Below are positions 4,207 to 22,184 of a DNA stretch of 64,000 bases, one piece after another (within the stretch, counting starts at the first letter, position 1; every line of letters starts with the position of its first letter). The notes under the pieces are model-generated. The model saw only the letters and a program-made list of their open reading frames with translations. It ran no database searches and was not told the DNA's origin. The position numbers were made by a program, and so were the translations under genes. Source of the stretch: an uncultured Nitrososphaerota archaeon (GTDB lineage: Archaea > Thermoproteota > Nitrososphaeria > Nitrososphaerales > Gagatemarchaeaceae); the NCBI GenBank assembly GCA_963838925.1, contig CAWISW010000003.1:352001-416000 (forward strand). Direction: 5' to 3'.

Positions 4207-4233
4207 CAGGCCCCCGTTCCTCCTAGGACAGGC

Positions 4234-6234: not shown

Positions 6235-6363
6235 GGACTTGCCATGTCGCACAGGGCACATGATGCTACGCTAGAGAACACGCGTTCTAAGGGGCAGAAC
6301 AGGCCGAACGGAGGCTAGATTGGCCCCCGGTGGAGGGCATTTCCCTCCAACCGGAGTCAGTAT

Positions 6364-6656
6364 GACGCGTGTCGGTCGTAGTCCTCCTCTTGTTCTAGGC
6401 GGGATTCAGCTAAGCGGCCTACCTTGGCCTGGTGCAGGCGCGTCGTCGACCATGTTCGGCCTTGCTCTGCACGGGTCAGCCGTTTCATCCCGCTTCCGCC
6501 GACCTCGGGATTTCTCCGTCATCGCCCTAGACGGGGCGGGTGTCGTTTCTGTTCTGTTGCCAGCCGTCTCCAGCTACGCCTCTCGGCGTCGTGCATCCTG
6601 CAGTGAGGGAGGAACTTCCCCAGGAGACCCCCGTGGCCCACCCACCGACTCACGTC
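6364..6656 (-). ncRNA. rnpB: Archaeal RNase P RNA
   Basis: Minus strand shows GGAAGTTCCTCC (CR-I), ACAGAAACGAC, GGATGAAACGGC, GAGCAAG, GCTTAGCTGAAT, AACAAGAGGAGGACTAC (CR-V); termini can pair as P1. Confidence 0.92.
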
Positions 6657-6735
6657 GTCCGCTAAACGCACTTGATTCGGAATTAAGTGTTTCGCGCAAC
6701 GCAGCTCCCGGTCGAAGCCAACGAAATCAGACTCC

Positions 6736-7296
6736 CTAGGGCGTAAACACGCCTGCGAATGGTGCGAAGGCCGTATTGTTTCCAATGCCCACTCTAATCT
6801 GAATGCCCCCATACAGTTTTTCGCCCACTAAAGGAGTGCATGGGCTGCAACCTGCGGTGAAGTTGGCCCCTATTGATGAAACCGTAGCATTGACAGTCGC
6901 CCACTGTCCGTATGAAAGGACAGCCGACGGCGAGCTTGTGCAACCGTCCGCAGCGGTCGATGTTGTTCCGTAGGTCAATTCCATACATCCTTCGCTATGA
7001 CCTATGGTTACGGTGCTGCTAAGAGCCGTGCTATAGACAAGCAGAGTGCAAGAGGTATGACTGATACTGCATCCCATCAGACCCACTGACACTTCGGTAA
7101 CCGGAACCGTATACGTTCCGATGGTCTCAATGGTGGTAGTGTAGGTTGTAGTCTGGACTGAAGTTGCTGTGACTGTCATTGCAGCGGCTCCTGAAGCATA
7201 GGCAATCAGCCCGCCCAGAATTAGCCCAATCATGAGGGCGCTGCTTACTGTCACGATGAGCACTGGCCCTCTGGTCCGAGTAGGTTTACTGCTCAA
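6736..7296 (-). CDS. Membrane-anchored Thr/Ser-rich surface protein
   Basis: N-terminal TM helix, Thr-rich linker, paired cysteines. Confidence 0.7.
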   Translation of the reverse strand: MSSKPTRTRGPVLIVTVSSALMIGLILGGLIAYASGAAAMTVTATSVQTTTYTTTIETIGTYTVPVTEVSVGLMGCSISHTSCTLLVYSTALSSTVTIGHSEGCMELTYGTTSTAADGCTSSPSAVLSYGQWATVNATVSSIGANFTAGCSPCTPLVGEKLYGGIQIRVGIGNNTAFAPFAGVFTP

Positions 7297-7344
7297 GATA
7301 ATTCAGAGATGAAAAAAGGGCTCTTAGGAGCGATTAATAGTTTG

Positions 7345-7872
7345 TCAGAACCTGCTTCCCCGTTCTGGTACGCGGAGCTGCGGGAAGAAGCTCCGCTCGA
7401 TCTCCACCGCCTCCTGCTCGGACGACGCCCTGGAGTACTCCACGAGAGGGTCGTGGTTGAGAGTCAAGAAGGTCGGGCCCCACTTGTATATGTTGAGGAA
7501 ACGCACTGCTTCCTCCTCCTCGCCGAGTATGAACAAGGTAGCGGCGACAGCTTCCACCGAGCTCAGGATTCCTAGCCGCGAGTAGTTCGTCGGGTTGGCC
7601 GCCAAGAGGCCGGGGAGCCTCCTGTGCTTTCCGCCAATCTTCCTGAAAAAGACCTCCTGGGCGAGGTTCCACGAGCAGTCTATCGCAAGGATGGACTTGC
7701 ACATCTTGTCGATGGGGGTGAGCAGCTGGCCCGAGTAGGGGTTGAGCACGACCGTCGTGTTGGGGGCGTGGAACTTCCTGTTGACCTCCGTCGCCAGGCC
7801 CATGTGCACCATCTTCTTGGCGGTGCACTTCTCCGGGGCGTCCTGCCCGAAGTCGATAACGAAGACGTTCAA
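7345..7872 (-). CDS. tsr3: rRNA aminocarboxypropyltransferase Tsr3
   Basis: DAPEKCTAKK, IDCSW, RRLPGLLAANPTNY, LSSVEA, KWGPTFLTLN. Confidence 0.93.
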   Translation of the reverse strand: MNVFVIDFGQDAPEKCTAKKMVHMGLATEVNRKFHAPNTTVVLNPYSGQLLTPIDKMCKSILAIDCSWNLAQEVFFRKIGGKHRRLPGLLAANPTNYSRLGILSSVEAVAATLFILGEEEEAVRFLNIYKWGPTFLTLNHDPLVEYSRASSEQEAVEIERSFFPQLRVPERGSRF

Positions 7873-7949
7873 TCTCTGAGCAACCCTGATTGAGAAAGGT
7901 TGATGAAAGAGGTGCTAATATACATCGTGAGAGTACCACCTTGAGCAAC

Positions 7950-8309
7950 TTGGGGCACACCTTTGTGGAGGTGACCGTCTACGGTGGCGATCTCTCGGCA
8001 GGCAAGAGGGTGAGGCTGCTCGTTGACACGGGCTCGACGTACACCTGGATTAGAGGGACGCTGCTCGGGGAACTCTCCATAAGGCCAACCAAAGAAAGGA
8101 GCTTCAGGACGGTTGACCGTAGGATTCTCAAACGGCAAATCGGCGAGGCGGTCATCGACTACGCCGGAGAGAGGGTTACCGCGGTCGTGGTGTTCGCGGA
8201 AGAAGGAGATGAGGAGGTCATTGGCGTCCACACTCTCGAGGGCATGGGGATGGAATTCGAGCCCGTGGCGAACCAGTTGAGGAAGGTCGAGGCCATCCTG
8301 GCCGTCTAG
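7950..8309 (+). CDS. Clan AA (retroviral-like) aspartyl protease
   Basis: LLVDTGSTYT and VIGVHTLEGMG; start uncertain (TTG 7941/7950). Confidence 0.85.
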   Translation: MGHTFVEVTVYGGDLSAGKRVRLLVDTGSTYTWIRGTLLGELSIRPTKERSFRTVDRRILKRQIGEAVIDYAGERVTAVVVFAEEGDEEVIGVHTLEGMGMEFEPVANQLRKVEAILAV

Positions 8310-8363
8310 CATTCGGACAAAACTATTTACTTCGCCGAGGGCTTCCGTTTTCGTGCTTCGCAG

Positions 8364-9659
8364 ATGCCCCGCCGAAGTGTAATCGTGTTTGTGATTACTG
8401 CGTTGGTCGCCACCGGAGCATACCTATCGGTTTCAGAACTTGCGGGTCAGCCCCCCGTCACTTCCAATCAAGTGACTTCGACCGGCAACTCGGTTTCTGT
8501 GGGCAGCTCCGGCAGTTACCAGGTCCTTAAGACGAACCTGACGATATATTATGGTCCGGCCTGCATTCCACCTAACCTTGAGGGCTTCGGCTGCGAGACG
8601 ATAGACACGGCGCTCCATTCCCCTTCCCTCAGCGGGGTGGACCTCATCCAGTACCAGGGCAGCAAGTATTATGGCCTGAACTTCACGGGTTACGAGAACG
8701 GGCAGCCTGACACCCGCGACATCTGGTTCACCAATTCAACGATCCTCTGCGTCAGCCCTCCGACCAGTGAATATCCCCCATGTCCGACGAGCTCTGCACG
8801 GCCGCGCGCCATCGTAATCTTCAACTCATCGGCTTCTGCATTGAACTCCTCAAGCGGTCTTACGCTGAGCCTCCAACTCTCACTCGCCCCCGGGAATTCC
8901 TCCAAGCTGCAAGTTAGGGTGGATCTCTTCAACACGCAACAAGCGGAGAATACAGTAGGCGCCGCAAACAGCTGGCCTGTCTCCAACGACTCTGTGAGGG
9001 ACATTTGCGTAAATCACATCGTCGGATACGTCTTGTATCAGGGACACTATGACTTCGGCAACTTCACTGCGGGCTCGCCTCTGGCCCTTGACCCTACTAA
9101 CACCCAGACGCTGTGTCCCGCGCCCTCATCGTCGGTATATTACTCATTCCAAGCCAACAGCGACAACGCAACGATTCAGGGGGCTAGCGCCTTCCCCTCG
9201 GGCGGTGCAACCCGGACAATCTCAGTCTCAGACAGTCTCTCGGGTTATTGGACCGGGAACCGGACATCATCTTCATTCGACTCGTTCCTCCCTGGAATCT
9301 ACTCTGTGGCTGCAATGGACCAATGGGGGCAGGTCGTCGTGCTCCAGTTCGAGGTCAGCGGAATCAGCCTACAGAACTTCTCGCTCTGCCCCTCTAACTG
9401 CCTCTATCCCAGCCCGTCTCTGACCGGAGAGATCTATTTCGGAGGCCCTTCTCTTGCGAAGAGCATGGAACTCTTCGTCAACGGGACCGACGAAGGGTCT
9501 CTGGGACACGGCATCGGTAGCACCAACGTCATCTACTTGTACAAGGGGAGTTTCCAGTCTCCGCAAGTAATAGCAGGCGATGCGTACGTGATCAAGTTCG
9601 TGGCCACTCTCGCGGACAACTCGACCGCCACCGCCTCGACCACAGTGGTAGCGAAATGA
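8364..9659 (+). CDS. Multi-domain secreted/surface protein
   Basis: Signal anchor; module ending GYW...PGIYSVAAMDQWG shared with 13722, 22275, 34438. Confidence 0.8.
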   Translation: MPRRSVIVFVITALVATGAYLSVSELAGQPPVTSNQVTSTGNSVSVGSSGSYQVLKTNLTIYYGPACIPPNLEGFGCETIDTALHSPSLSGVDLIQYQGSKYYGLNFTGYENGQPDTRDIWFTNSTILCVSPPTSEYPPCPTSSARPRAIVIFNSSASALNSSSGLTLSLQLSLAPGNSSKLQVRVDLFNTQQAENTVGAANSWPVSNDSVRDICVNHIVGYVLYQGHYDFGNFTAGSPLALDPTNTQTLCPAPSSSVYYSFQANSDNATIQGASAFPSGGATRTISVSDSLSGYWTGNRTSSSFDSFLPGIYSVAAMDQWGQVVVLQFEVSGISLQNFSLCPSNCLYPSPSLTGEIYFGGPSLAKSMELFVNGTDEGSLGHGIGSTNVIYLYKGSFQSPQVIAGDAYVIKFVATLADNSTATASTTVVAK

Positions 9660-9735
9660 CCCGCAACGATAACCTTCGCTCACCTGGGCAGAGTCGAGAC
9701 GAAACTGTTTTTCTGCTGCCGTACCAGCGTCTGGA

Positions 9736-10200
9736 GTGACCTTGCGCCGAATCGAAGTCGCCGCGGTGATTGTCGTCCTGGCGTCGGCCTGGATAGCGGG
9801 CTACCTCGTCGCCCCATCCTCTTCCCCCGCGACGTCTGTCTCCTATCAGACGGTCACCGGGCTCTACACGTCGTCGGCACTTCAGGTCTTCACTTCGACC
9901 TTCCTCGCGCAGAGCAGCACTCAGAGCGGGGTGAAGACGGCGACCGTCTACAACACGATAACCTACACGACGTCCGCAACCGGACTCACCTCCACGATAA
10001 CTCTCTGCTCATCGGTCGAGTACGCCACCGTCACGACTACGGGGACGGTGACCTCCTATCTCTCAAATGAGACGGTCGTCACCAAGACGACCACGACTGG
10101 CGTGACGACCATACGCGCCGGCTCCACGGTCACCACGACGGGGTGCGATGTTGCCACGGTCACCAGAACTACCACCACTTACGTGACGACGACTCAGTGA
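9736..10200 (+). CDS. Thr-rich membrane-anchored surface protein
   Basis: N-terminal TM, extreme Thr bias. Confidence 0.7.
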   Translation: MTLRRIEVAAVIVVLASAWIAGYLVAPSSSPATSVSYQTVTGLYTSSALQVFTSTFLAQSSTQSGVKTATVYNTITYTTSATGLTSTITLCSSVEYATVTTTGTVTSYLSNETVVTKTTTTGVTTIRAGSTVTTTGCDVATVTRTTTTYVTTTQ

Positions 10201-10226
10201 TCCGACGCCTTCCAAAGCAGTCAGTA

Positions 10227-10826
10227 TCAACCTTCCTGGGCGTACTGGACGATGAAGGCCAGGTAGTCGGAGCTCTCTCTCAAGATGAGCCAGTCCCCAG
10301 CCCTATAGACATAGGAGTAGCTTGCCGAAAGATTCCCCTCAAAATCCCCCATCATGTTGGAGTGTCCTGAGAAGGACAAGGAAGCACCGAGACTTGCGGT
10401 TCCGTTTGGGAGGAGGCTCGCGTTCTCAGAGCGGATGGTGTAGTTGATCTCCGTCGCGGCGCCCGGGAACGTCCGCAGCGTTGTGCTGATGGCGCTGGTC
10501 CCCCTGTAAGTGCCTCCGAAACCCTGCGTGACCCCATACCAGTACATTATCCCGTTGGACGCGTAGTCCTCCGTTGCCGCGGTATAGTTTCTCTCGTCGA
10601 GGTGCGATAGGTGCATGTTGAATGCTTGGACGACCGCGCTCAGGTTCTTGAGGGACTGCGACTGGGCCGCGGTGTAGCTCCCTACCTCGGAGCTAAGGCC
10701 CGAATTCTCCTTCTGGAGCGATGCGACCAATCCGTATTCGTAGCCGCTGATGAACAGGACGACCACCAGCGCGACAATGAGGCAGATGGCGAGTTCGCTG
10801 CGGACCGTCTTCGGGGTCGGCTCCAA
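10227..10826 (-). CDS. Membrane-anchored protein with NTF2/SnoaL-like domain
   Basis: TM + short coil; HLSHLDERN...WYGVTQGFGGTY module shared with 15080 and 19646. Confidence 0.7.
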   Translation of the reverse strand: MEPTPKTVRSELAICLIVALVVVLFISGYEYGLVASLQKENSGLSSEVGSYTAAQSQSLKNLSAVVQAFNMHLSHLDERNYTAATEDYASNGIMYWYGVTQGFGGTYRGTSAISTTLRTFPGAATEINYTIRSENASLLPNGTASLGASLSFSGHSNMMGDFEGNLSASYSYVYRAGDWLILRESSDYLAFIVQYAQEG

Positions 10827-10905
10827 GCCACTCGAAAGAGGGTCAGGTCACGGATAAAGGATTCTCGGTTCGGTAAATCGCCTTGCTAGTCGCATCAAGA
10901 AGAGA

Positions 10906-11110
10906 TTTCCATCAGCACATCCTTTCTCCGCAAGGGGAGGGGAGAGCTGAGGAGAGCGGCGATAGAAGATCGCGTTGAAGGGGTGGGGGTGTACGCTAGA
11001 AGCCTTCGGGCGACCAGTTCAGCCCGTCCACTACCTATAGCTCAACGTGCGAGTGAAATGCCCCGGCGGAGGGGCAATGAACCCCTGTGCACGGCGAAAT
11101 CACTTTCATT
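10906..11110 (+). ncRNA. Candidate unrecognised structured RNA (three hairpins)
   Basis: Hairpin 10906-10955 capped by GCAA, long hairpin 10971-11049 capped by cTTCGg, third hairpin 11051-11106; no ORF in the track. Confidence 0.5.
11031..11110 (+). repeat. Cassette-delimiting element copy A (longest)
   Basis: ctacctatagctcaacgtgcgagtgaaatgccccggcggaggggcaatgaacccctgtgcacggcgaaatcactttcatt. Confidence 0.92.
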
Positions 11111-11151
11111 CGGATAAATCCCGTCCTAGAACAAAGCGGCATACCGGCTGA

Positions 11152-11736
11152 CTATTGGGCGGTCACTGTCACAGTTTCTAGGTCAGCTGGCCTGGAATGG
11201 CTCAGGGGACCTGAGTTCCAGTTTGCGACTGCCTGAACTGTGTAGTTCATCCCTCGAACTATATCGAGCTCTGCATTCGATATCATGAAGGAGTAGTTGG
11301 TCTCCTGCTCGCCACGAGAGTTGGGTGTCCACGTGGGGTCCCAATTGATGCCAGTGGTGTCGATGTGGATTGTGGTGACATTGGTGCCCACTGGCCATCC
11401 ACCATTCACCGGGTTGGGCAGAGCCCACTGCAGTTCGATGGTCGAGGGCGGTGAGAGATCGCTGTGGGTGCACTCTATCGTGCCGGCAAGCAAGCTCTCA
11501 TTCGTTCCAAGCGTGGATGAGGACGTGAGATTGGTGTCGATCAGCAAGATGTATGGGCCGCAATAGGTGTCCGGACCCTCGCAGTTCGTCGATGTCGTGA
11601 CCCCGAACTCGCTCGTTACGCTCGTGGTCTGCCCGCTGCGAGTCGTTGCAAGGTAGCCGACGGCAACCGACCCCAGCACCACGGCGAGCGCCAAGATGAG
11701 CGCGGCAACAGATCTTCCGATTGCGGCTCGAGGCAT
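11152..11736 (-). CDS. Membrane-anchored surface protein (cassette 1)
   Basis: Start taken as MPRAAIG (11736) after the promoter motif; the longer ORF runs through repeat B. Confidence 0.75.
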   Translation of the reverse strand: MPRAAIGRSVAALILALAVVLGSVAVGYLATTRSGQTTSVTSEFGVTTSTNCEGPDTYCGPYILLIDTNLTSSSTLGTNESLLAGTIECTHSDLSPPSTIELQWALPNPVNGGWPVGTNVTTIHIDTTGINWDPTWTPNSRGEQETNYSFMISNAELDIVRGMNYTVQAVANWNSGPLSHSRPADLETVTVTAQ

Positions 11737-11791
11737 TGCAGGCTGGGTTCTGTCGTATCGCGTTCGGGATATAGTTTTGTCCGAACCAAGC

Positions 11792-11829
11792 GCCCCGGCG
11801 GAGGCACAATGAACCCTCATGCATTGCGA
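11792..11829 (+). repeat. Cassette-delimiting element copy B
   Basis: gccccggcggaggcacaatgaaccctcatgcattgcga. Confidence 0.9.
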
Positions 11830-11950
11830 GAATTGCCATTCAGCTCCTGCAATTACGGTTCGACTTTCGGAAACGTACCTTGTAGCCCGTCTAGGACTCA
11901 GATCAAGAGGCTCGTAGCAGACCCTCTCTTCTCGACCCAACTCCCTCTCT

Positions 11951-13507
11951 TCAACCACCGTTCTTGATGGACGTTGCGGAAGTCGTCGTCGTGGTGACGG
12001 TGCTGCTCCCCTCGTTCGACGTGACAACGGTCACCACACCGGACGGGACTGACACCGTGACGTAGATGGTCGAATTGGGATGAACCTGAATCGAAGGGAT
12101 CGTCGCACTATACCCCGGCCCCTGGTTGTAACCGGCCATGAAGGTCACGTTGTAGTAGCCACTCGCGATGAAGGTCATGTTCCCCGCGAGCTGCAGGTAG
12201 CCGGTTCCGTTGACGTCCCCCAGCCTGATGCAGTAGTGGTTTGTCAGGCCCCATTCGCCGTTTGTCGCGTTTCCGAACTGGGTCACGAAGAGTGTCCCAT
12301 TCGTTATGACAGTGCCCTGGTCCGTGGCCACCTTCATGTATACGGTCCCTTTCGGAGCCGGATTCAGCACCGTGTTGAGCGGTGCACCGCAGGCAGGGAA
12401 GTTCACTGTCGTAGATGTGCTCGTTGTTGATGACTGCAGAGTTGTGGAGGCGGAGGACCCGGCCGTGGTGCAACTTGTCCCATAAGTGGTATCAACCGCT
12501 CCAGAAGGAACCTGCAGCGTCACACAGGTGGATCCCGCCCTTTGGCTCGCCGTCACGTTGTAGGTTTGACCACCGTATTCGACGGAGAAAGAATTGGTGG
12601 CGTCCCCGAAGGCATACCATTCTGTGCTCGTGGTCGTGAAGCTCACGAATGCCTCGCCGCTGAAACACGACGGATACACGGAACACGGAACGCACGTGTA
12701 CGGGAAGTCGTAGGATGTCGTCGCGACCGCTCCCGCGACGGGGGCCGAATCGGAGTCCGAAAGCACGCGCAAGTAGACCTCCCCAAAGCACGCGTAAGTG
12801 GACTTCCCCGCCCACGCTACGAGGTTCCCCGCGCAGTCATAGTTCGAGAATTGATAGCTGGCCAGGGTGACCACGCCGGACGGCACGGCGAGCGTAACAC
12901 ACGTCGTCGAATCAGGGTAAGTGCCCCCTGAGAACAAGTATGTGTTGCCGGCATAGCCTACCGTAAAATTGTAGCCCCCGGCGATGTTGTCTGTTGAATT
13001 ATTGGGAATGTCGAACCATCCCGACGACCCTTCGCTGACTCTGTCAAAGTAAAGCGTCTCTGTCGTATGGAACTCTGCGGCGTTGCAGCCCGTCTCAAAG
13101 GCGGCGCTGACGGCAGGCGCGCCTTGCTGAACCGGCATCCCAGTGGTGTCTGACACGACCTGCAACTCCATCGTGGCACCGCCCGGGGGAGTGCAGTTGG
13201 TCATGGTGGCGTTCATCTCGGTGGACGTCGTCAGAGAGCTAGAGAGACTCACGTTTGCCGAGTAGGTGCTTTGAGTGTCGGCAATCCTCGAAACCGTGGA
13301 AGAGGTTGAGGTCTGTGAGGTCGCCACGGTTTCGGTCCCTTGGGACGTCGAAGCTGTCGTGCTCGTCGTGCTGTTAGGTAACGAGCTGGTCCCCTGTGAA
13401 AAGAAAGCCGCGGTTATTGCAACTAGCCCAACTGTAATGGTAACAAGAGCAATCGAGAGGTATCGTGCCGCAAGGGCGGTCCTCTTTTGACCGACTTCAA
13501 ACCTCAT
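11951..13507 (-). CDS. Surface protein with three internally repeated Cys-containing domains (cassette 2)
   Basis: TM, S/T linker, repeats ending TCVTLAVPSG / TCVTLQVPSG / TIYVTVSVPSG. Confidence 0.8.
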   Translation of the reverse strand: MRFEVGQKRTALAARYLSIALVTITVGLVAITAAFFSQGTSSLPNSTTSTTASTSQGTETVATSQTSTSSTVSRIADTQSTYSANVSLSSSLTTSTEMNATMTNCTPPGGATMELQVVSDTTGMPVQQGAPAVSAAFETGCNAAEFHTTETLYFDRVSEGSSGWFDIPNNSTDNIAGGYNFTVGYAGNTYLFSGGTYPDSTTCVTLAVPSGVVTLASYQFSNYDCAGNLVAWAGKSTYACFGEVYLRVLSDSDSAPVAGAVATTSYDFPYTCVPCSVYPSCFSGEAFVSFTTTSTEWYAFGDATNSFSVEYGGQTYNVTASQRAGSTCVTLQVPSGAVDTTYGTSCTTAGSSASTTLQSSTTSTSTTVNFPACGAPLNTVLNPAPKGTVYMKVATDQGTVITNGTLFVTQFGNATNGEWGLTNHYCIRLGDVNGTGYLQLAGNMTFIASGYYNVTFMAGYNQGPGYSATIPSIQVHPNSTIYVTVSVPSGVVTVVTSNEGSSTVTTTTTSATSIKNGG

Positions 13508-13596
13508 TACTACTCGTTGCGAAAGAGCGGTTGGAGATACTTACAGGTTGCGCACTAATGTTCTAGGCCTATCCAAGCCGGAGTCGAGGTCCCACA

Positions 13597-13641
13597 CCCG
13601 GCGGAGGCGCAATGAACCCTTATGCACGGCGATTGCCCGCA
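13597..13641 (+). repeat. Cassette-delimiting element copy C
   Basis: cccggcggaggcgcaatgaacccttatgcacggcgattgcccgca. Confidence 0.92.
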
Positions 13642-13721
13642 TTTTCTCAAAGCTACCGGGAGCTGGAACGTTCGGAGACAAAGGTATTAGTGAGCAGGAG
13701 GGCCTTCACGCTCCGATCTCC

Positions 13722-15005
13722 ATGACACTGCCGACGAACAGCGACAGGAGACTGGTCTACGTAGCCGCGGCGATAATAGTCGGCGTAGTGCTCGTATCGG
13801 CAGCAATCATACTCCCTCCAGCCATCCATCAGACGAAGACAGCGCCACCATCGACCTCGACCACGGTATCTCAACCATCGGTCTCGACTAACGCCTCAAG
13901 CACGACAGCAGACGCGACCGGGCTCCGACTTTCGCTGGCCATAAACAATGACGTGATAGCTGAAGGGGGCAGCATCTCAATCAACATCACAGATTTCAAC
14001 ATACTGCCGGTCAGTAACTCACCCCAGCCTATCAGCATCTTGAGGCTCGGCACGAGCGCGTGCCCTACATCGTTGCCCCTTGGTGTTGGGATATTCCAGG
14101 GCGACTTCGACGCCGGAAACGTCTCCAGCGCCCAGCCGATGGATCTCTACCAACCAGGAGTCTACAGCTGTCCCGGCATTCCATCGGGCGGCTACTCCTA
14201 CACCTTTGAGCCGGAGAGCGACAACGTGAACCTCTCCGTCGGGACGAGCACTGCGACGCACACCGTTACAGACAACGGCACGACTAGCGTGCAGTACATC
14301 GTCACGAATCCCACATACGTCAAGGACGCGTCCGCAACTCTGCAGTATTCGGGCTATTGGACGGGGGAAGCGACCTTCACCTTCTCGAACGCCACCTTTC
14401 ATTCCTTTGGTGCGGGGGAGTACACCATCGAAGCGGTCGACTTGTGGGGCCACGAGGTGTTCGCCCACTTCCAAGTAGTCCCGAACCCTGCATCGTCGGC
14501 CACAACCACGACGATAACGGTTGCTGCACCCGGCCAGTGTCCTGCAGGGAACACTTGCGCTTCTTTCAGCTACAACTCTGACGGCCAGGTCAAGGTGGAT
14601 TCCGTCAACGCGACCCAGCAGGCGTGCTTCAACTGCGGAGTCGTGAATGGGAACGGTCACTCGTACGTGTACATTCAGGTGACGTTCGAGAACACAGGCA
14701 GCTTGCCTATCTACATCCCAGACGGCTCGGCAGTGATTTCAACGTCGCCCTCGTCGAACTCCTCTGTGCTCCAGCAGGTGGTCTCGGCCCAGTGCGCAGG
14801 AACATATTCGATCCTGGAGCTCGACCCCGGGAAGAGCGCCACATTCTCAGGTCCTTCCTGCGAGGACGGATTTGCATACCAGATGGTCAATCCTGGGACC
14901 GTGACCCTCACTCTCAGTTTCAATTGGACGACCAACTCGCAAGCTTCGACAAATCCGACCGACTTCCAAGAGAAAACCACAATCTTGGCGCAGCTCACTT
15001 TCTAG
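13722..15005 (+). CDS. Two-domain surface protein (cassette 3)
   Basis: Start MTLPTN 13722; TM; module shared with 34438 and 8364. Confidence 0.8.
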   Translation: MTLPTNSDRRLVYVAAAIIVGVVLVSAAIILPPAIHQTKTAPPSTSTTVSQPSVSTNASSTTADATGLRLSLAINNDVIAEGGSISINITDFNILPVSNSPQPISILRLGTSACPTSLPLGVGIFQGDFDAGNVSSAQPMDLYQPGVYSCPGIPSGGYSYTFEPESDNVNLSVGTSTATHTVTDNGTTSVQYIVTNPTYVKDASATLQYSGYWTGEATFTFSNATFHSFGAGEYTIEAVDLWGHEVFAHFQVVPNPASSATTTTITVAAPGQCPAGNTCASFSYNSDGQVKVDSVNATQQACFNCGVVNGNGHSYVYIQVTFENTGSLPIYIPDGSAVISTSPSSNSSVLQQVVSAQCAGTYSILELDPGKSATFSGPSCEDGFAYQMVNPGTVTLTLSFNWTTNSQASTNPTDFQEKTTILAQLTF

Positions 15006-15043
15006 TTAGGCCGTGGCATTAGTGTCGGGCGAGATTGAACTCT

Positions 15044-15072
15044 CGGCGCAGGTGCAATGAACCCTTATGCAC
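15044..15072 (+). repeat. Cassette-delimiting element copy D
   Basis: cggcgcaggtgcaatgaacccttatgcac. Confidence 0.88.
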
Positions 15073-15079
15073 AGTTATG

Positions 15080-16792
15080 CTAGCAGAGCGTCAGGTTTGA
15101 TACCAGCGACACCCCGTCGTAGATGCTTAGCGCCCCGCAAGCGCCTGGGCCGACCATGCCCTCCGCGTCGACCCACTCGGGGCTGGTCGAGGAGCTCACT
15201 ATGTTGAGGAATGAACCGGGCGAATCAAAAGTGGCCGCGATGGTCCCGTTGTACCCTATCAGTCGGACGGTCGTCCCGTCTCCCACGATCACCAACGAAG
15301 CACCGTTGACGAATGCCAGCGGGTTCCCGTAGCCGGTGTCGTTCCAGAGGATGTTACCACTTGAGTCGAAGAGGAGCTTACCGACGTTGCCGCCCGAAGC
15401 TATGTATCCGCCATCGGAAGACATGAAGAGCGGCTGGACAGCGGTGTATGCCTGCCTCTTCCAGAGGACGTCGCCATCTTTGCCGCTGAAGTAGTAGACG
15501 CTCCCGTTCTCGCCGTTCACGAACGTCCCCACCGCCACCCTGGAGCCGTCGCTCGACATCTGCACGAAGTTCACGCCTTCGCCTTGATTGCCAATATGAC
15601 TCCACAGAAGGCGACCTTGCGAGTCGAGGTAGACCACTCCCCAGCTGAAATCGGTCCGGTTGGGGAGCAGCATGTACTGCACCGCGCTCACGACGTAGTC
15701 TCCTTGGCCCGACGTAGCGATGTGCATGCCCGAGCCTCCGTAGGGGAAAGTGTAGTTCCAAAGTACTGAACCAGCGTCATTCAAGCAGAGTATGCCCCAG
15801 TAGTAGTCCGCGAATATCCTTGAACCGTCTGGCGACATCCCCAGCGAAATCACCGAACCCTTCGCGGTGACGTTCCAGAGCTGTGCGCCCTCCCCGTCGA
15901 AGAGAAAGAGGACACCGGTATCGCTGACATGCCCGAGCCGCTCCAAACCGTATCCGCCCGCTGCGACATAGGACGCATTCTGAGAGACAGCCACCGACTC
16001 TATGTTGCTATTGTTGGTGACACGCCTCCAGAACACCCCTTGGGATTGGCTCCGCAACGAGACCAGGTACACGGAGCCGTTGCCGCCGCCTCCTATGCTG
16101 ATTGTCCCCACTGCGGCGTAGCCTCCGTCCGGACTTATGCTCTCAGCATCAGGCCTCTGGGTAGCCGCTTGTCCTGGAGGCGGAGGCCCTCCACCCTGCT
16201 GGGAATACTGAATGTTGAAGTTTGTGAAGTCCCAGTGCTCGGCGGAGATCAGCCAGACGCCTTCCGCAGGGAAGTAGGCATAGGAATCGTTCGCCAAGAC
16301 AGCACCAGCGAAGTTCCCCCAGATGTTGCTGTGGCCGGAGAACGAGAAGTTCCAGTCCACCAACACCGCGCTTGTCGAGGGCAGGATTGTCTGCGTCACG
16401 TTCGTGATCTGGAACGACGACATTCCACCTATCGCGGTCTCAAGTGTGAGTTTGATGTCGGTCCGAGACTCGTAAGAGCCGCCAAGGCCTTGAGTAGTTC
16501 CTACCCACGTCATCGTCCCATTGGGTGCGAAGAGATCGGCGACTGCCGAGGCGTTCCTCGACTCGAGCAGTGAGACATGCATCGCGTGCGTTGCGTTGAC
16601 CATCTCGACGGCCTGTGAGGGAGGGGACGGGTAACTCGAGGACGCGTTGGTTGTGGTCGATACGCTCGATGCCGAGGAGGTCGCCGTCTCAGTACTGCTC
16701 TGCAGACTCACCAGAGGCAACGACACCAGGGTGAGAACGGCGATCATCACAAGCGCCTGCGCCGCGACGAACAGACCTTCTTTTCTTCTCAT
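15080..16792 (-). CDS. Surface protein: NTF2-like domain + WD40/PQQ-like beta-propeller (cassette 4)
   Basis: TM leader; repeated S.DG.YVAVG / G..LW blades. Confidence 0.8.
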   Translation of the reverse strand: MRRKEGLFVAAQALVMIAVLTLVSLPLVSLQSSTETATSSASSVSTTTNASSSYPSPPSQAVEMVNATHAMHVSLLESRNASAVADLFAPNGTMTWVGTTQGLGGSYESRTDIKLTLETAIGGMSSFQITNVTQTILPSTSAVLVDWNFSFSGHSNIWGNFAGAVLANDSYAYFPAEGVWLISAEHWDFTNFNIQYSQQGGGPPPPGQAATQRPDAESISPDGGYAAVGTISIGGGGNGSVYLVSLRSQSQGVFWRRVTNNSNIESVAVSQNASYVAAGGYGLERLGHVSDTGVLFLFDGEGAQLWNVTAKGSVISLGMSPDGSRIFADYYWGILCLNDAGSVLWNYTFPYGGSGMHIATSGQGDYVVSAVQYMLLPNRTDFSWGVVYLDSQGRLLWSHIGNQGEGVNFVQMSSDGSRVAVGTFVNGENGSVYYFSGKDGDVLWKRQAYTAVQPLFMSSDGGYIASGGNVGKLLFDSSGNILWNDTGYGNPLAFVNGASLVIVGDGTTVRLIGYNGTIAATFDSPGSFLNIVSSSTSPEWVDAEGMVGPGACGALSIYDGVSLVSNLTLC

Positions 16793-16923
16793 GCTTGGTC
16801 ACCGTGTGGAACAATCGGTAGCAGCCGAGGGCTGCTTCGAGAAGAAGGGCCCGCCTCAGTAAATAGTTTTGTCCGAGCTGGGCGCGAGGCCGTAAATAGG
16901 TCCGATGGCCATTCCGGCACGAC

Positions 16924-17163
16924 ATGAATAAAGGAACGATTCTGCTTCTTGCTGCCGGAGCTTGCGCGATAGGCTGCGCCTTCGTCTGTTTCTTCTTTTT
17001 CGTTCCAATAATAAGGATGGACATAACGCCTTGCGAACCTAATGGTGCTGGGGTTGGATATGCTTCTTTGTCATATCACTTGTTCTACATGGGAATGAAC
17101 TATCTTGGAAACCAATTAGTCTGGATGACGGGAAGTAATGCCAGTTGCATGGGGCTTCCCTAA
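16924..17163 (+). CDS. Small membrane protein (cassette 4)
   Basis: 79 aa, hydrophobic N-terminus, lower GC. Confidence 0.55.
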   Translation: MNKGTILLLAAGACAIGCAFVCFFFFVPIIRMDITPCEPNGAGVGYASLSYHLFYMGMNYLGNQLVWMTGSNASCMGLP

Positions 17164-17226
17164 GATTATCATCACCCGCGACTGGACACCCGAGGCGAAT
17201 CACCCGACCATTGGACAGAACCGCTG

Positions 17227-17260
17227 GGCGGAGGCCCGATGAACCCTGTGTATGGCGAAG
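17227..17260 (+). repeat. Cassette-delimiting element copy E (degenerate)
   Basis: ggcggaggcccgatgaaccctgtgtatggcgaag; 1-nt deletion relative to the consensus. Confidence 0.85.
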
Positions 17261-17394
17261 CCCTTCTACTTCATTTTAGACAAACGCAGCGGAGCCCGCG
17301 CCCCTCGGAACGAGACTTCGAAGCCCAACCCTCCGCTAATCACGTTCGGACAATCCCTTAACTGGGACCTCGCTCTGTCGTTAGAACGTTCGAA

Positions 17395-18273
17395 ATGCGT
17401 CCGATTGCTGGCGCTGCCGTTGCCGCAGTCATTGTGGTCGCGGGGCTTGGAGGATACCTCATAGCTACAGGAGCGATGTCGCCCGGCTCTTCGCAGACCA
17501 GGTCACAGACGACAGTCACCGTTACTGCTTCGAGCACGGAAACCGCAACCGCGGCCTTCAACGGATCATCGTACTACAGCGACAATGTAACAGGCATCAT
17601 GATAACGGAGAACCCGGGGGCATTCCACTTCGACAACGGGTCGGTGACGTTCATGGGAGTGGAGTTCCAGACGATCTGCACGGATTACGGCGCTGGATGT
17701 CCGGTCCCGGCTCCCCCTCCAGGAACAACGTTCGTGGTGCCCTCCGGCGCAAGCATCACCCTGAACGTCACCTTCCCAGACCACAGCAGCGAGATTGTCG
17801 AGGGGGGACCTTTATTTGCAGGGCCTGTTCGCTCGGATACATTCTCTCATCACATCGATCCTCAGGCGGGGATTATGATAGTGTACAACGATTCGGACCC
17901 CATCTACAAGTCCTACCTGCTCGTCTCCATTCCGGAGCCGACACCGAGCCAAGCGACGAACTCCAGCACATCGGGCGACGCAGGGACTTCCTCGAATACC
18001 TCCGTCGCGACCTCCACGGCGACCGAGACCCTCACCACGCAGGCCTCCCAGGCTACGACGAGTTACGCTGCTCCGACTTCTGACTGCACCTTACTGGGCG
18101 GTACCGTCACGGTGACGACCACTGTCACTGCCTTCGCGCCGCCCGCGACGTCTACCGTCACGGTGACGACAACGACAGTCTCGACCAGCTACACCCAAAC
18201 CGTCACCGTGACCAGTTGCACATACACCGAGCCGACGGTCACTTCTACCGTCACGACCACAGCGAGCCCGTAG
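17395..18273 (+). CDS. Surface protein with Thr-rich tail (cassette 5)
   Basis: TM; VTF.D..SE...SH..PQAG module shared with 36644. Confidence 0.8.
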   Translation: MRPIAGAAVAAVIVVAGLGGYLIATGAMSPGSSQTRSQTTVTVTASSTETATAAFNGSSYYSDNVTGIMITENPGAFHFDNGSVTFMGVEFQTICTDYGAGCPVPAPPPGTTFVVPSGASITLNVTFPDHSSEIVEGGPLFAGPVRSDTFSHHIDPQAGIMIVYNDSDPIYKSYLLVSIPEPTPSQATNSSTSGDAGTSSNTSVATSTATETLTTQASQATTSYAAPTSDCTLLGGTVTVTTTVTAFAPPATSTVTVTTTTVSTSYTQTVTVTSCTYTEPTVTSTVTTTASP

Positions 18274-18276
18274 GGA

Positions 18277-18318
18277 CGGCGGAGGCGCAATGAACCCTTA
18301 TGCATGGCGAAGTCACTC
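18277..18318 (+). repeat. Cassette-delimiting element copy F
   Basis: cggcggaggcgcaatgaacccttatgcatggcgaagtcactc; starts 3 nt after the upstream stop. Confidence 0.92.
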
Positions 18319-18396
18319 ATTTCCATTGCCGAAGCTCAGTCTAACTACCAAGTTCAAAAGAGACCTCCTGACTTCTACCTCACGCAGGGTTGCGGA

Positions 18397-19530
18397 GTGC
18401 CAAAGCGTGTTCCACATTTCCGTTCCAGCCGCTCGGCGGCGAGCATCTTTCTTGCCCTCTTGGTCGTCTGCATCATGCTCGCTCCCTTCGCCAGAGCCCA
18501 AGATGCAGTCACGTCCATCACTGTCGGATACTATCCTGATGCGGCAGCGTACGACGCTTCAAAGGGAGAGGTGTTCGTGGCCAATTCTGGCTCCGAGAGC
18601 CTGTCCGTGATATCCGACAGCAGCAATCAGGTTATCGCGACGGTAAGCTTGGGGAGCGCTCCGAATGATTTGGCCTATGATCCCGCAAGAGGAGAAGTGT
18701 TCGTGACCGATGCGGCCGCTAGCGACGTCCTCGTAATATCTGATACCACGAACTCAATCGTCGACACCATAGCGTTGCCCCCAAACAGTCAGCCCATGTA
18801 CATCGAGTACGACCCCTCGAAGGGCGAGATGTTCGTAGCAGATCGCGGCTCGGCCACAATCTCAGTGATATCTGATAGCGCCGACACGATTGTCGCGACC
18901 ATAATCATGCAACCCCAAACAAGCTCGTTTGTATACATGGCCTACGACTCTGCCAAGGTCGAGATGTTCCTCACCAATCCTGTGACTCACGACGTTTCCA
19001 TTGTCTCAGACACAACCAACACCGTCATCGCAAACGTGACCTTGCCTGCCATAGCAGATCCCACGAGCATAGTATTCGACCCCGCGAGGGGCGAGATGTT
19101 TGTGGCGAATTTCGATTCAAACATCTTCGTCATATCGGACAGCAGCAACACGCTAGTCGCGACGATGAATGCAGTTAGCGGATCAAAGGCCGAGGTCTAC
19201 GACTCGGCTCGGGGCGAGATTTTCGTAGCGAATGCTGACACTGCCTCGATCTCTATCATATCCGACAATAACAACACGGTCTTGACGACAGCGTTTTTGC
19301 CGATGGCAAGTACGCCCTCTGACCTTGCCTATGACTCCGCCAAGGGAGAGGTGTTCGCAACAGACTCAGGGGGTACCACAGTCTACGTCGTATCAGACGC
19401 ACAATCATCGACCATCACTACAAGTTCCACGGCCCCAGAATTCTCCCAAGGCGACACAGTCATCGTGATGGCGGCAATGATAATGTGCATTGCATTGCTG
19501 ACAAGGAACTATCGTTCAACGTGCGAGTGA
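18397..19530 (+). CDS. YVTN/YncE beta-propeller surface protein with PEF-CTERM-like tail (cassette 6)
   Basis: Seven (Y/F)D..(K/R)GE(V/M)FV blades; C-terminal APEF + TM; GTG 18397 taken as start. Confidence 0.85.
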   Translation: MPKRVPHFRSSRSAASIFLALLVVCIMLAPFARAQDAVTSITVGYYPDAAAYDASKGEVFVANSGSESLSVISDSSNQVIATVSLGSAPNDLAYDPARGEVFVTDAAASDVLVISDTTNSIVDTIALPPNSQPMYIEYDPSKGEMFVADRGSATISVISDSADTIVATIIMQPQTSSFVYMAYDSAKVEMFLTNPVTHDVSIVSDTTNTVIANVTLPAIADPTSIVFDPARGEMFVANFDSNIFVISDSSNTLVATMNAVSGSKAEVYDSARGEIFVANADTASISIISDNNNTVLTTAFLPMASTPSDLAYDSAKGEVFATDSGGTTVYVVSDAQSSTITTSSTAPEFSQGDTVIVMAAMIMCIALLTRNYRSTCE

Positions 19531-19585
19531 AATGCCACGGCGGAGGTGCAATGAACCCTTGTGCATGGCGATTGCCCGCACTTTC
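19516..19585 (+). repeat. Cassette-delimiting element copy G
   Basis: tcaacgtgcgagtgaaatgccacggcggaggtgcaatgaacccttgtgcatggcgattgcccgcac. Confidence 0.92.
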
Positions 19586-19645
19586 AACAAGCTAGCGGAG
19601 CCTCCACACGGAATAATAGGCGCCGCCGCTATTCCCGCATCCAAG

Positions 19646-20326
19646 CTGAAGGCAAAGACGAGCGCCTATGTGGCCGCTCAAATCGCCGCTTTTGCTGCCG
19701 TGTTGGTCCTGATCTCATTGCCACTCGAGTCAGGGAGCCAGCAACCGATTTCGGCGCCCTCCACCAGTCAAGAGCTGACCTTCACATCGTTTAGTTGCAC
19801 TTCCACCTCGAAGGCCGTCACTAACGTGTTGCCCGTCAGCTCTGAATCCCAATTGCTTTCAATGGTCAACAGCAGCTTTACCGAGCATCTCCTGCATCTC
19901 GGCTCTAGAAACACCTTCGCGGCAACGAACGACTTCGAGGATGGGGCGCAAATGGCCTGGTCGGGGTCGGGGTTCGCCAACGCCGGAGGCTTCGCAGGAA
20001 ACTACACTGGGTTGCGGGCAATCAACGAGGTCTACGAGGGGCTCTTGGAAATCCCAACTTCACTCTCCATTGTCAACGAGAGCTGGACTTTGGCCACAAC
20101 CGGGCCAGAGTCGGCCGTGGTCCACTCTTCACTGGGATTCGAGGGATACGGCAACGCAACGCATGGGGAGGGCTTCGACGCCCAAGTCGTTGGAACAGAC
20201 TATTACGTGGCCGCAAACGGCTGGCAGATTTCGCAGGAATTCTGGAATTTCACGAGCTTCGACTGGCAATACTCGTTCTCAACAATGTTTGGCCCTGGCC
20301 CATCTGACGATTCGTGCTACCACTAG
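19646..20326 (+). CDS. NTF2-like surface protein (cassette 7)
   Basis: Leader LKAKTSAYVAAQ...LISLPL aligns with N-termini of 15080 and 22275 genes, implying a start near CTG 19646; track start lies inside repeat G. Confidence 0.7.
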   Translation: MKAKTSAYVAAQIAAFAAVLVLISLPLESGSQQPISAPSTSQELTFTSFSCTSTSKAVTNVLPVSSESQLLSMVNSSFTEHLLHLGSRNTFAATNDFEDGAQMAWSGSGFANAGGFAGNYTGLRAINEVYEGLLEIPTSLSIVNESWTLATTGPESAVVHSSLGFEGYGNATHGEGFDAQVVGTDYYVAANGWQISQEFWNFTSFDWQYSFSTMFGPGPSDDSCYH

Positions 20327-20341
20327 AGCATCCAGCGCCAG

Positions 20342-20396
20342 CTACCTATAGCTCAACGTACGAGTGAAATGCCCCGGGGGAGGCGCAACGATCCCT
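20342..20396 (+). repeat. Cassette-delimiting element copy H (terminal)
   Basis: ctacctatagctcaacgtacgagtgaaatgccccgggggaggcgcaacgatccct; left part nearly identical to copy A. Confidence 0.9.
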
Positions 20397-20568
20397 CTTC
20401 AAGAGAAACGGAATCCGCCAAGACGGGCTTATCTCGCGATTTGCCATTTCAGGACTTCGACGATGAGCATGGTCATGTCTCCAACCCTAGTCTGAACTCA
20501 GTCGAATCTCTCCGTGTAACGAAATGAACTCTTTTATACCGAGTCCGACCAAATAGTGCCGAACACAA

Positions 20569-20802
20569 ATGCCCATGGCTTTCGTGCTTATCAACGCAGA
20601 TTTAGGGGCCGAGGAGGAGCTGCTAAAGTCGCTCAGAGGGTTGGAGTTCGTACGCGATGTGTACGTCGTCTACGGAGTTTACGATATTATAGCTCGCGTC
20701 GAGGCCGACACCATGGAGAAGGTCAAGGAGACCATCACGTGGAAGATTCGCAGGCTCGACCGCGTCAGGAGCACCCTGACGATGATAGTCGTCGAGGGCT
20801 AG
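20569..20802 (+). CDS. Lrp/AsnC ligand-binding-domain protein
   Basis: MAFVLIN...VYGVYDIIARVE...IRRLDRVRSTLTMIV; TATA tttata at ~20533. Confidence 0.9.
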   Translation: MPMAFVLINADLGAEEELLKSLRGLEFVRDVYVVYGVYDIIARVEADTMEKVKETITWKIRRLDRVRSTLTMIVVEG

Positions 20803-20887
20803 CTACACAACTCTCTGTCGCACGATAATCTTCGTGGCGACCGACAATTCCATGGCGAGCGAGACGGCCATGATAATCGCGAGATGA

Positions 20888-21682: not shown

Positions 21683-21712
21683 GGAGGCGCCCTTGGGACA
21701 ACAAATAACCAA

Positions 21713-21754
21713 CGCGTCAGGAGCACGCTGACGATGATCGTCGTCGAAGGCTAG
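21713..21754 (+). repeat. Copy of the last 42 bp of the Lrp gene
   Basis: 39/42 identical to 20761-20802; all three differences synonymous. Confidence 0.95.
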
Positions 21755-21765
21755 GTGTTAATGCT

Positions 21766-22014
21766 TCAATCGTAAGCTGAGCTTCTCGGCGCAATCTTGA
21801 AGACGAGTATCTCGTCTTGAGGAAGTATCGAGTACAGGACGCGAATGTCGCCGACTCTCAGCCTGTAAGAATTCAAGGCTCCCTTGAGCTTCTTGCAACC
21901 GGGCGGATACGGAGTGTCGATAAGTTCGGAAATCTTGGACCCCAATCGAGCCTTCAAGTCCGCCGAAGCACTGTCGAGGCTTTTCCTTGCCTTGGTCGAC
22001 AGGTATACCTTCAA
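21766..22014 (-). CDS. RelE/ParE-family toxin
   Basis: P.PPGCKKLKG...YRLRVGDIRVLY...IAPR. Confidence 0.9.
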   Translation of the reverse strand: MKVYLSTKARKSLDSASADLKARLGSKISELIDTPYPPGCKKLKGALNSYRLRVGDIRVLYSILPQDEILVFKIAPRSSAYD

Positions 22015-22184
22015 CGCTTGCTTTTCCTGACGAAGGGAACGGTCTTGCCTTCCTGATGCTCCTTCAGCGCTTCTCTTCGGGCAGCCTTGTCGTCCTCGGA
22101 CATCTGCTCTGCCAAGGCGTCCTCGATTGAATCGAGCCGCTCACGTATCAGCTTTAGTTCTCTCTCGACCGCCGACGCCATCAT
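22011..22184 (-). CDS. Cognate antitoxin (57 aa, not in ORF track)
   Basis: MMASAVERELKLIRERLDSIEDALAEQMSEDDKAARREALKEHQEGKTVPF...; TTGA overlap with toxin start. Confidence 0.8.
   Translation of the reverse strand: MMASAVERELKLIRERLDSIEDALAEQMSEDDKAARREALKEHQEGKTVPFVRKSKR

Follow-up and report, generated by a model that had tools for sequence, protein, structure and literature searches.

The head of the array

The window analysed here is a stretch of 64,000 nucleotides (nt) from the genome of an uncultured Nitrososphaerota archaeon (3 contigs, 1.84 Mb, 87% complete), in which it occupies C3:352001-416000. It holds an array of small genes separated by copies of a short repeat, and the stretch at 10896-11098, which heads this array, is the main subject of this work. 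It duplicates, away from the gene, a part of the 23S rRNA of this genome, namely the 3' end with its trailer. Furthermore, comparison within the genus shows the 20-nt core of the trailer to be the junction between short gene cassettes set in one orientation, the array in the window being one secondary array of this kind. The parts of the head are the following, with positions counted in the window.

10896..11057, plus strand: the final 162 nt of the 23S of this genome, copied and detached from the gene, called the P arm of the array head (blastn)
10952..11043, plus strand: stretch matched by the Rfam family LSU_rRNA_archaea (cmscan)
11058..11098, plus strand: copy of the 3' trailer, that is, the 3' strand of the 23S processing stem, and repeat copy A (leader complementarity; nhmmer, 11037-11098)
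11065..11084, plus strand: 20-nt repeat core, consensus GGCGGAGGCGCAATGAACCC, with GGGGC and CCCC in copy A (repeat search, RNA contigs, limits of cassette homology)

An earlier note on this DNA had described an unrecognised structured RNA starting at 10906. The letters it quoted are present as given, no open reading frame (ORF) of at least 80 amino acids (aa) overlaps 10890-11151, and the plus strand folds at -91.7 kcal/mol (z -3.23, 0/200 shuffles as good), versus z -1.24 and 22/200 on the minus strand. The GCAA-capped and UUCG-capped hairpins are both found in the minimum free energy structure, and they are normal parts of the 23S 3' domain. On the other hand, the feature begins at 10896, and instead of a long stem between CGCGTTGA and TCAACGTG the rRNA model pairs GCGGCGA with UCGCG in a local hairpin.

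The stretch was in fact recognised when Infernal was run against Rfam. It matches archaeal large-subunit rRNA (RF02540, LSU_rRNA_archaea), with model positions 2885-2973 of 2987 aligned to window 10952-11043 at 51.4 bits (gathering score 50, E 7.9e-14) in an E-value-mode cmscan of window 10700-11300 (601 nt). The scan of the whole window in gathering mode does not list this fragment and returned only RNase P RNA, a fluoride riboswitch and tRNA. The match reaches the gathering score and does not cover the model end to end (162 of about 3,680 nt). Since only positions 2885-2973 match and a complete gene exists elsewhere, the window element is a fragment and not an rRNA gene.

The single complete 23S gene of the genome is located on the minus strand (C3:203899-207577; 2484 bits over model positions 1-2987), 159 kb from the window copy and on the opposite strand. 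By blastn, window 10896-11098 and the end of this gene (G000:C3:203859-204060, G000 being this genome) are identical at 198/203 positions (98%), and the window copy carries five private differences; its own variants include G at 11073 and C at 11015. Of the 203 nt, 162 are the last ones of the 23S and 41 belong to the 3' trailer. Up to the core (169 nt) the copy is 99.4% identical to the genome's own 23S, and the entire 203 nt are 93% identical to the 23S ends of the relatives G012 and G009. In sequence and fold, 10896-11057 is the same as the 3'-terminal domain of archaeal 23S rRNA (RF02540), whereas it differs from a true 23S 3' end in being detached, on the opposite strand and without a leader partner nearby. 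A split or fragmented rRNA of the 4.5S type was ruled out, as the genome's own 23S covers model positions 1-2987. A simple inversion of the primary array was also ruled out: the true 23S retains its own end, so the head copy must have arisen by duplication of that end. The head copy is probably not a functional RNA gene.

The repeat as part of the 23S processing stem

The 5' leader of the 23S holds the reverse complement of the trailer, and leader and trailer cofold into a long helix in 5/6 genomes of the genus, G007 being uninformative. In these cofolds the leader changes between GCCGUG and GCCAUG together with the trailer, which changes between CACGGC and CAUGGC. This long helix, with the cut and ligation described below inside it, agrees with a pre-rRNA bulge-helix-bulge processing site; the exact 3-4-3 bulge geometry was read by eye only.

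Logan metatranscriptome contigs from runs X11 and X15, which belong to two studies, match window 10896-11077 only. They carry 23S body before 10896 and, after 11077, the 23S leader from GCATCCGCCGGGG on. The trailer ending in GGCGCAA is thus joined to the leader GCAUCCGCC, and the junction, GGCGCAA followed by GCAUCC, is that of a circular pre-23S (or a circular 23S). It sits in the middle of the 20-nt core GGCGGAGGCGCAATGAACCC. The trailer supplies the 3' strand of the stem at which the pre-23S is processed, and its 20-nt centre holds the cut and ligation site. Circular 23S rRNA formed by bulge-helix-bulge cutting and subsequent ligation has been described in Nitrososphaeria (PMC12918454), and the pairing of trailer with leader and the circular junction are alike here.

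A transcript of its own, as the earlier note would have it, is not what these contigs represent. They continue into the 23S body and leader and not into the window flanks, so the RNA evidence concerns the true 23S of this organism or a close relative and not the window copy; the lack of cover beyond 10896-11077 carries no weight either way. The idea that the last hairpin of the stretch is the repeated unit was half right. The repeat is real, and the GGGG(CAATGAA)CCCC hairpin is found in copy A alone, the other seven copies of the window having GGCGC, GGCAC, GGTGC or GGCCC and then CCCT. In the true pre-rRNA this stretch pairs with the 23S 5' leader, and the repeated unit is not a hairpin.

Repeats and cassettes in the window

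A 24-nt repeat pattern with at most 3 mismatches has six matches in the window versus 0.00 expected, and a 21-nt repeat family has eight copies there. All copies are on the plus strand.

11065, plus strand: start of repeat copy A, 21-nt family (repeat family search)
11779..11829, plus strand: repeat copy B, 21-nt start 11797 (nhmmer E 2.4e-09)
13597..13633, plus strand: repeat copy C, 21-nt start 13600 (nhmmer E 8.2e-09)
15033..15072, plus strand: repeat copy D, degenerate, 21-nt start 15045 (nhmmer E 8.8e-05)
17227..17259, plus strand: repeat copy E, degenerate, 21-nt start 17227 (nhmmer E 4.2e-04)
18277..18311, plus strand: repeat copy F, 21-nt start 18278 (nhmmer E 2e-08)
19512..19572, plus strand: repeat copy G, about 25 nt 23S-like before the core, 21-nt start 19539 (nhmmer E 1e-18; alignment)
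20348..20399, plus strand: repeat copy H, the last of the array, 23S-like before the core, 21-nt start 20376 (nhmmer E 1e-13; alignment)

The genes between these copies, and the one just before the head, are listed below.

10227..10826, minus strand: gene just upstream of the head, 199-aa membrane-anchored secreted protein, no Pfam match
11152..11739, minus strand: cassette 1, 195 aa, N-terminal membrane helix, no Pfam family
11951..13507, minus strand: cassette 2, 518-aa Ser/Thr-rich secreted protein
13548..15005, plus strand: cassette 3; the listed ORF reads through repeat C, so the true start lies further in
15080..16792, minus strand: cassette 4, 570 aa, PQQ_2-type beta-propeller (PF13360, E 2e-10)
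17395..18273, plus strand: cassette 5, 292-aa secreted protein
18304..19530, plus strand: cassette 6, 408 aa, NHL-repeat beta-propeller (PF01436) with internal coding repeats of 126-135 nt
19532..20326, plus strand: cassette 7, secreted protein; taken whole, this cassette shows 70% identity to the first one behind the G009 23S

The products of the seven cassettes are membrane-anchored and Ser/Thr-rich secreted proteins, with two beta-propellers, and most have no Pfam family. The protein encoded at 10227..10826 is weakly related to cassette genes of the G009 array (tblastx, 29-54% identity). A motif resembling ATAGTTTTGTCCGAAC (GGACAAAACTAT on the other strand) occurs at 11764-11793, 16856-16885, 28264-28293 and 31191-31220, just upstream of minus-strand cassette genes, and looks like an archaeal promoter box that the cassettes may share and carry with them.

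The earlier note had also proposed that a non-coding RNA gene at the head was the integration anchor and that units B-H were displaced copies of its 3' end. The anchor has to be moved, as the stretch is a 23S fragment and the real anchor lies 159 kb away with its own array of 19-20 repeats; the second part stands, for the units do copy an RNA gene's 3' end and are displaced from it, with a geometry like that of integration arrays at tRNA genes.

Arrays behind the 23S gene across the genus

A profile search of the genome with nhmmer gave 29 repeat copies: 19-20 behind the true 23S, eight in the window, one in contig C1 and a weak one at C3:322249. Arrays of this kind also stand behind the 23S gene of five relatives, and the six genomes range from 13 to 54 repeats.

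C3:171262-203919, minus strand: primary array behind the true 23S of this genome, 32.6 kb, 19-20 repeats (loci L002, L003)
G009: array behind the 23S, 49 copies over 56 kb
G015: array behind the 23S, 54 copies over 83 kb
G007: array behind the 23S, 26 copies, in a single-contig genome
G018: array behind the 23S, 13 copies
G012: array behind the 23S, 19 copies, plus 5 in a second array

All the repeats (193/193 copies in eight arrays of six genomes) lie on the 23S strand. The 185 intervals between them have a median of 905 bp (interquartile range 724-1447 bp) and hold about one gene each; 106 are no longer than 1 kb, 170 no longer than 2.5 kb, and 7 exceed 5 kb. Behind the 23S of this genome the cargo includes a type I restriction-modification system (REase_I E 7e-221, MTase_I E 8e-171), a prokaryotic viperin (E 6e-68), an Mrr-type nuclease, a PIN/MazE pair, a NERD-HEAT protein and an IS240-type transposase, and a Hachiman-type helicase is encoded just past the last repeat.

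With the 215-nt query, matches were obtained in 18/22 other genomes of the genus, many of them in the well-assembled ones. Outside the genus, the same query gave 0 matches in 2 other genomes of the family and 0-2 in 17 other families of the order, all of these in the 23S body. Among the matches listed for the exact core there are records titled as metagenome-assembled genomes (MAGs) of Nitrososphaerales or Thaumarchaeota, including 'Candidatus Gagatemarchaeum stordalenia', and the exact core was found in 0 IMG/VR viral contigs. The matches listed also include MAG contigs labelled as bacterial (Gemmatimonadetes, Acidimicrobiales, Caldilineales, Acidobacteria and Eubacteriales; loci L007, L022, L038, L041-L042, L068, L072 and L083). 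The short ones, one with two cores about 1.1 kb apart, look like mis-binned pieces of thaumarchaeal arrays, and the single core matches in long contigs fit chance, for which our own estimate is about four matches.

Concerning the 23S genes themselves, in this genome and the five relatives they span 3,667-4,496 nt versus a model of 2,987 positions, so they include large insertions, either introns or expansion segments. About 1 kb separates the model's 3' end in G007 from another copy of the 23S end that follows it.

Cassettes as units

The 185 intervals were compared all against all. Cassette 4 of G012 corresponds to cassette 28 of G009 (94%), cassettes 17 and 22 of G007 to cassettes 15 and 36 of G015 (95% and 91%, respectively), and cassette 17 of G015 to cassette 33 of the same genome (99%). 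The order is not collinear: cassettes 1, 6, 12, 13 and 17 of G012 match cassettes 10, 6, 15, 18 and 13 of G000. The limits of homology were examined in the seven pairs whose coverage reached 0.9 and whose identity reached 80%.

100 nt after the upstream core: identity 73-98% in 7/7 pairs
100 nt before the downstream core: identity 83-92% in 5/7 pairs
100 nt before the upstream core: identity 50-77% in all 7 pairs
100 nt after the downstream core: identity 50-65% in all 7 pairs

Whole units from core to core thus recur across species at differing positions in the arrays, and they behave as discrete cassettes that recombine in the core. From these sequence comparisons we infer that the 20-nt core would be the region of DNA crossover.

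Each cassette starts with the right half of the core and a stretch called the P-prime arm, which is able to complete the processing stem, continues with its gene or genes and ends with a P arm (a copy of 0-160 nt of the 23S 3' end) and the left half of the core. The P-prime arm can pair with the 23S leader of its own genome at -15 kcal/mol or lower in 136/193 copies versus 5/193 controls taken 300 nt downstream, a count that is partly circular because the search profile includes that stretch. A role of the P-prime arm as terminator was considered and found weak, since a run of at least 4 T within 80 nt of the core occurs in 48/193 copies versus 18/193 controls.

Ten P arms of at least 60 nt were compared with six 23S ends. 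The head of the window array is the longest (169 nt), and its best match is the 23S of its own genome (99.4%). The long P arms of G009, in 4/4 cases, are closer to the 23S of G012 than to that of G009 itself, which points to import from another lineage.

A candidate recombinase

A 443-aa integrase with a C-terminal zinc ribbon heads secondary arrays in relatives and is often followed by an ORF with a DnaJ domain. The close members of this clade are 94-100% identical across G012, G020, G009 and G018, and in 4/4 loci the strand of the integrase also carries a copy of the core, about 0.6 kb downstream.

L142:887-2215 (G012): zinc-ribbon integrase, 443 aa, at G012:C7:140887-142215
L143:4904-6567 (G009): zinc-ribbon integrase
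L144 (G018): zinc-ribbon integrase
L147 (G020): zinc-ribbon integrase

For comparison, a RadA-like housekeeping protein shows only 58% identity between this genome and G018, so that the integrase clade looks recently mobile between species. This tyrosine recombinase is the candidate enzyme for the cassettes. A 32%-identical integrase fragment in G001 does have a core nearby. The order of the modules is zinc-ribbon integrase, DnaJ-domain ORF (in G009 and G018), 23S-core copy and cassettes, and those of G012 and G009 lie within an element with a common 200-aa zinc-ribbon protein and a 303-aa protein.

The zinc-ribbon integrase was not found in this genome, and the backbone proteins of the G012 element have no relatives there except one weak match for p181. 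When three integrases and the DnaJ ORF were searched with tblastn against this genome and the eight arrays, DnaJ-like cassettes were the sole matches. The 23S arrays have no PF00589 gene within or next to them. Upstream of the 23S, the ORF translations, judged by inspection only, are those of housekeeping genes, and IMG/VR contains no relative of the G012 integrase.

The one PF00589 gene of this genome encodes a 431-aa integrase at G000:C3:12443-15976 (L004), adjoining a 219-aa ORF that by eye resembles a C-terminal glutamine synthetase fragment; this would be an element integrated into glnA.

Surroundings of the window array

The closest relative, G012, shares window 4233-7922 and 20522-26311, and the 12.6 kb between are unrelated and contain two weak cores only. 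The window array therefore lies in a variable island, and the conservation expected of a non-coding RNA gene is missing, since the syntenic DNA shows no homology to window 7922-20522.

Both borders of the head are real in the reads, as DNA unitigs of run X1, possibly the source sample itself, cross them without a mismatch (10617-10936 and 11066-11257). One X1 contig skips from 11086 to 11792 and was considered as an excision product; it has 5 differences in 62 nt and unrelated flanks, and is read as another repeat unit of a relative.

Directly after the 23S-type array lies a 77-aa gene of Lrp/AsnC type (20572-20805, plus strand; RAM-domain-like by eye). Its last 40-60 nt or so are repeated at 20742-20801, 21694-21753 and 22201-22260 with small genes between, among them a ParE toxin gene at 21769-22014, and the syntenic G012 locus has six copies. 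This is a second cassette array with a different site, and the same pattern at Lrp that the earlier note had pointed out is thereby borne out, with the 3' end of the gene repeated three times here and six times in G012.

Other features of the window are listed below.

6367-6653, minus strand: RNase P RNA (whole-window Rfam scan)
35703-36178: fluoride riboswitch (37.4 bits) with crcB right after it, a usual pairing
37420-38106, plus strand: ORF with a LAGLIDADG domain, overlapping the next feature
38090-38187, minus strand: tRNA-Pro(UGG) call of 98 nt, a length that suggests an intron
43295-44488, minus strand: IS240/IS6-type DDE transposase gene

Another transposase gene of the IS240/IS6 type is found at G000:C3:179323-180489 (minus strand), inside the 23S array.

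Origin of the arrays

The explanation that we favour, and hold to be fairly probable, is that the head is a detached duplicate of the 23S 3' end and that the core-joined cassettes are moved by site-specific recombination. Cassettes would move as circles through recombination within the core, with an enzyme acting in trans, for which the zinc-ribbon tyrosine recombinase found beside a core copy in relatives is the candidate. Circles of the form P-core-P' recombining with the core behind the 23S would give the layout of units that is observed. When a cassette lands first behind the 23S, its P-prime arm could keep the processing of the 23S intact, comparable to tRNA-targeting elements that carry the 3' part of the tRNA. 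The head copy, coming from the 23S of its own lineage, may mark the place where a piece of the primary array seeded or joined the secondary one.

Several points weigh against this explanation. The right-hand homology ends short of the core in 2/7 pairs, the exact crossover is not placeable because the core is identical everywhere, and the count of pairing P-prime arms has the circular element noted above. The 23S copies of up to 160 nt in the P arms are unexplained by simple core-by-core exchange. In 7900-10895, before the head, nhmmer --max gave no core copy at E values up to 50, which leaves the cassette that owns the head P arm without a left boundary, and neither a circular cassette nor an empty site was seen. 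The longest ORF runs with the array direction in 109 cases and against it in 59. Regarding the enzyme, neither the window array nor any of the six 23S arrays showed a recombinase (tblastn of 3 integrases at E 1e-3; Pfam on 30 + 22 ORFs). The single PF00589 gene of this genome, which is 87% complete, is of another type and lies beside a glnA fragment. Moreover, ten remoter integrase homologues (34-70%; 13 loci with 1.5-kb flanks) have no core nearby.

Homologous recombination or gene conversion between the 23S-derived repeats could also build and shuffle the arrays without a dedicated recombinase. Circles from repeat-by-repeat crossover would re-enter at any repeat, and the head would have come from the 23S end of this genome by gene conversion or duplication. 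In favour of this rival are the lack of an integrase in the arrays and the window, repeat extents that vary on both sides, and P arms of 60-169 nt that are often near-identical to a 23S gene, as the head is at 99.4% to its own. We nevertheless consider it unlikely. Many neighbouring repeats share only about 20-35 nt (window copies C, E and F), which offers little for exchange, and the homology of cassettes still starts and stops at the core. The single orientation of all 193 copies and a specific integrase clade tied to the core in 4/4 loci also speak against it.

In a third scenario the arrays hold no mobile cassettes and are graveyards of self-integrating elements, such as proviruses or plasmids, that entered successively at the 23S trailer and were reduced to a cargo gene. 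Tandem re-use of one attachment site and loss of integrase genes are described for archaeal elements (PMC8371274, PMC6563490) and likewise for tycheposon islands (bioRxiv 10.1101/2020.12.28.424599), and some intervals are large, 7/185 being above 5 kb. Most of the intervals are far smaller, with 106/185 at or below 1 kb and an interquartile range of 724-1447 bp, and identical small units are found complete elsewhere in the arrays of other species, a pattern not expected from independent decay. Together with the lack of integrase fragments in the eight arrays and of the exact core in IMG/VR contigs, this makes the scenario improbable.

We regard as very improbable that the head is an independent functional non-coding RNA gene, a separate rRNA piece like the chloroplast 4.5S, or an RNA pairing with the 23S leader. 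The plus-strand z of -3.23 and the lack of ORFs would suit such a gene, and a trailer copy could in principle pair with the pre-23S leader. Its structure is inherited from the 23S, however, and the 23S of this genome is complete to position 2987 with no piece missing; the RNA contigs continue into the 23S body and leader, and G012 is non-homologous at 7922-20522. An assembly artefact, namely a chimeric join at a repeat that misplaced a 23S end, has next to no probability: the genome is metagenome-assembled and contains the stretch at another locus with 98% identity, and no short-read contig spans all 203 nt, but the unitigs cross both borders with 0 differences (X1 possibly being the source sample), the copy has 5 private differences, and partial 23S ends are common in the arrays of relatives, including a single-contig genome.

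Going beyond site-specific recombination as such, the whole could be an integron-like platform not described before, with insertion at the bulge-helix-bulge site of the pre-23S, cassettes that have, where an attC would be, a mimic of the rRNA 3' end with its trailer, a horizontally spreading zinc-ribbon recombinase acting in trans, and a stock of defence genes (viperin, type I restriction-modification, toxin-antitoxin) and surface proteins. This wider proposal is tentative, and we give it somewhat less than an even chance. A bolder version, in which RNA cutting and ligation at the trailer copies would help to make or move cassettes, is much less likely and has only a slight chance of being right.

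Relation to known systems

Islands at tRNA and tmRNA genes and tycheposons are described (bioRxiv 10.1101/2020.12.28.424599; PMC4383910) as leaving direct repeats of the 3' part of the target, keeping the target working and placing older units outward. The arrays studied here are alike in that direct repeats of the 3' part of a structural-RNA gene flank the inserts. However, the target is here the 23S trailer and its processing site, the units are about 0.9 kb, mostly with a single gene and without integrase, up to 54 of them stand in a row, and they also copy sequence upstream of the crossover. A tyrosine integrase at one end of each insert, as in Islander-type islands, is not found in the arrays; the integrase only heads secondary arrays (G012, G009, G018 and G020).

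Integrons, among them clusters of attC sites lacking an integrase (CALINs), are also reported in Archaea (PMC9668308). Sedentary chromosomal integrons and CALINs share with these arrays the long one-directional series of short, mostly single-gene cassettes with similar recombination sites between them, the shuffled order and the frequent lack of an adjacent integrase, as well as the cargo of toxin-antitoxin, defence and secreted proteins. The platform of integrase, site and cassettes is seen in G012, G009 and G018. On the other hand, the palindromic arrangement of attC, R'' (RYYYAAC) and R' (GTTRRRY), was found in 0/29 units on either strand. The sites are copies of the rRNA trailer and not imperfect palindromes, and gene orientation is mixed (109:59). 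Furthermore, the gene of the candidate recombinase, a zinc-ribbon protein, is read in the direction of the array, and the PF00589 search gave no IntI beside the insertion site.

Xer-dependent elements, such as IMEX (integrative mobile elements exploiting Xer) and pdif modules, are modules bounded by short sites and moved by a recombinase that they do not encode. No dif-like symmetry was recognised by eye in the core.

A 23S 3' end or processing stem serving as an attachment site, or arrays of this kind, had no report in the literature searched (supplements and subscription journals being outside its scope). The main text of the genome paper of the family (PMC10640624) does not mention integrases or mobile elements, and the word 'rRNA' occurs 0 times in the main texts of a thaumarchaeal mobile-element survey (PMC6563490), a review of archaeal tyrosine recombinases (PMC8371274), PMC9668308 and the tycheposon preprint.

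Significance

The claim of a new RNA fails, and the system underlying it resembles an integron anchored on an rRNA processing site. On the practical side, partial 23S ends in the arrays may mislead rRNA callers and binning. Moreover, the birth of cassettes, a long-open question for integrons, is made testable here, as each unit holds a datable copy of the 23S end of its donor.

For the biology of the group, a genus of abundant acid-soil archaea carries 13-54 swappable single-gene units behind its only 23S gene, joined at the processing site. If the units move in the way proposed, this would be a second, independent route to an integron-like gene bank. It would also make the rRNA processing stem an attachment site, the first such use found in the literature searched, and would explain the exchange of defence and surface genes among these uncultured archaea.

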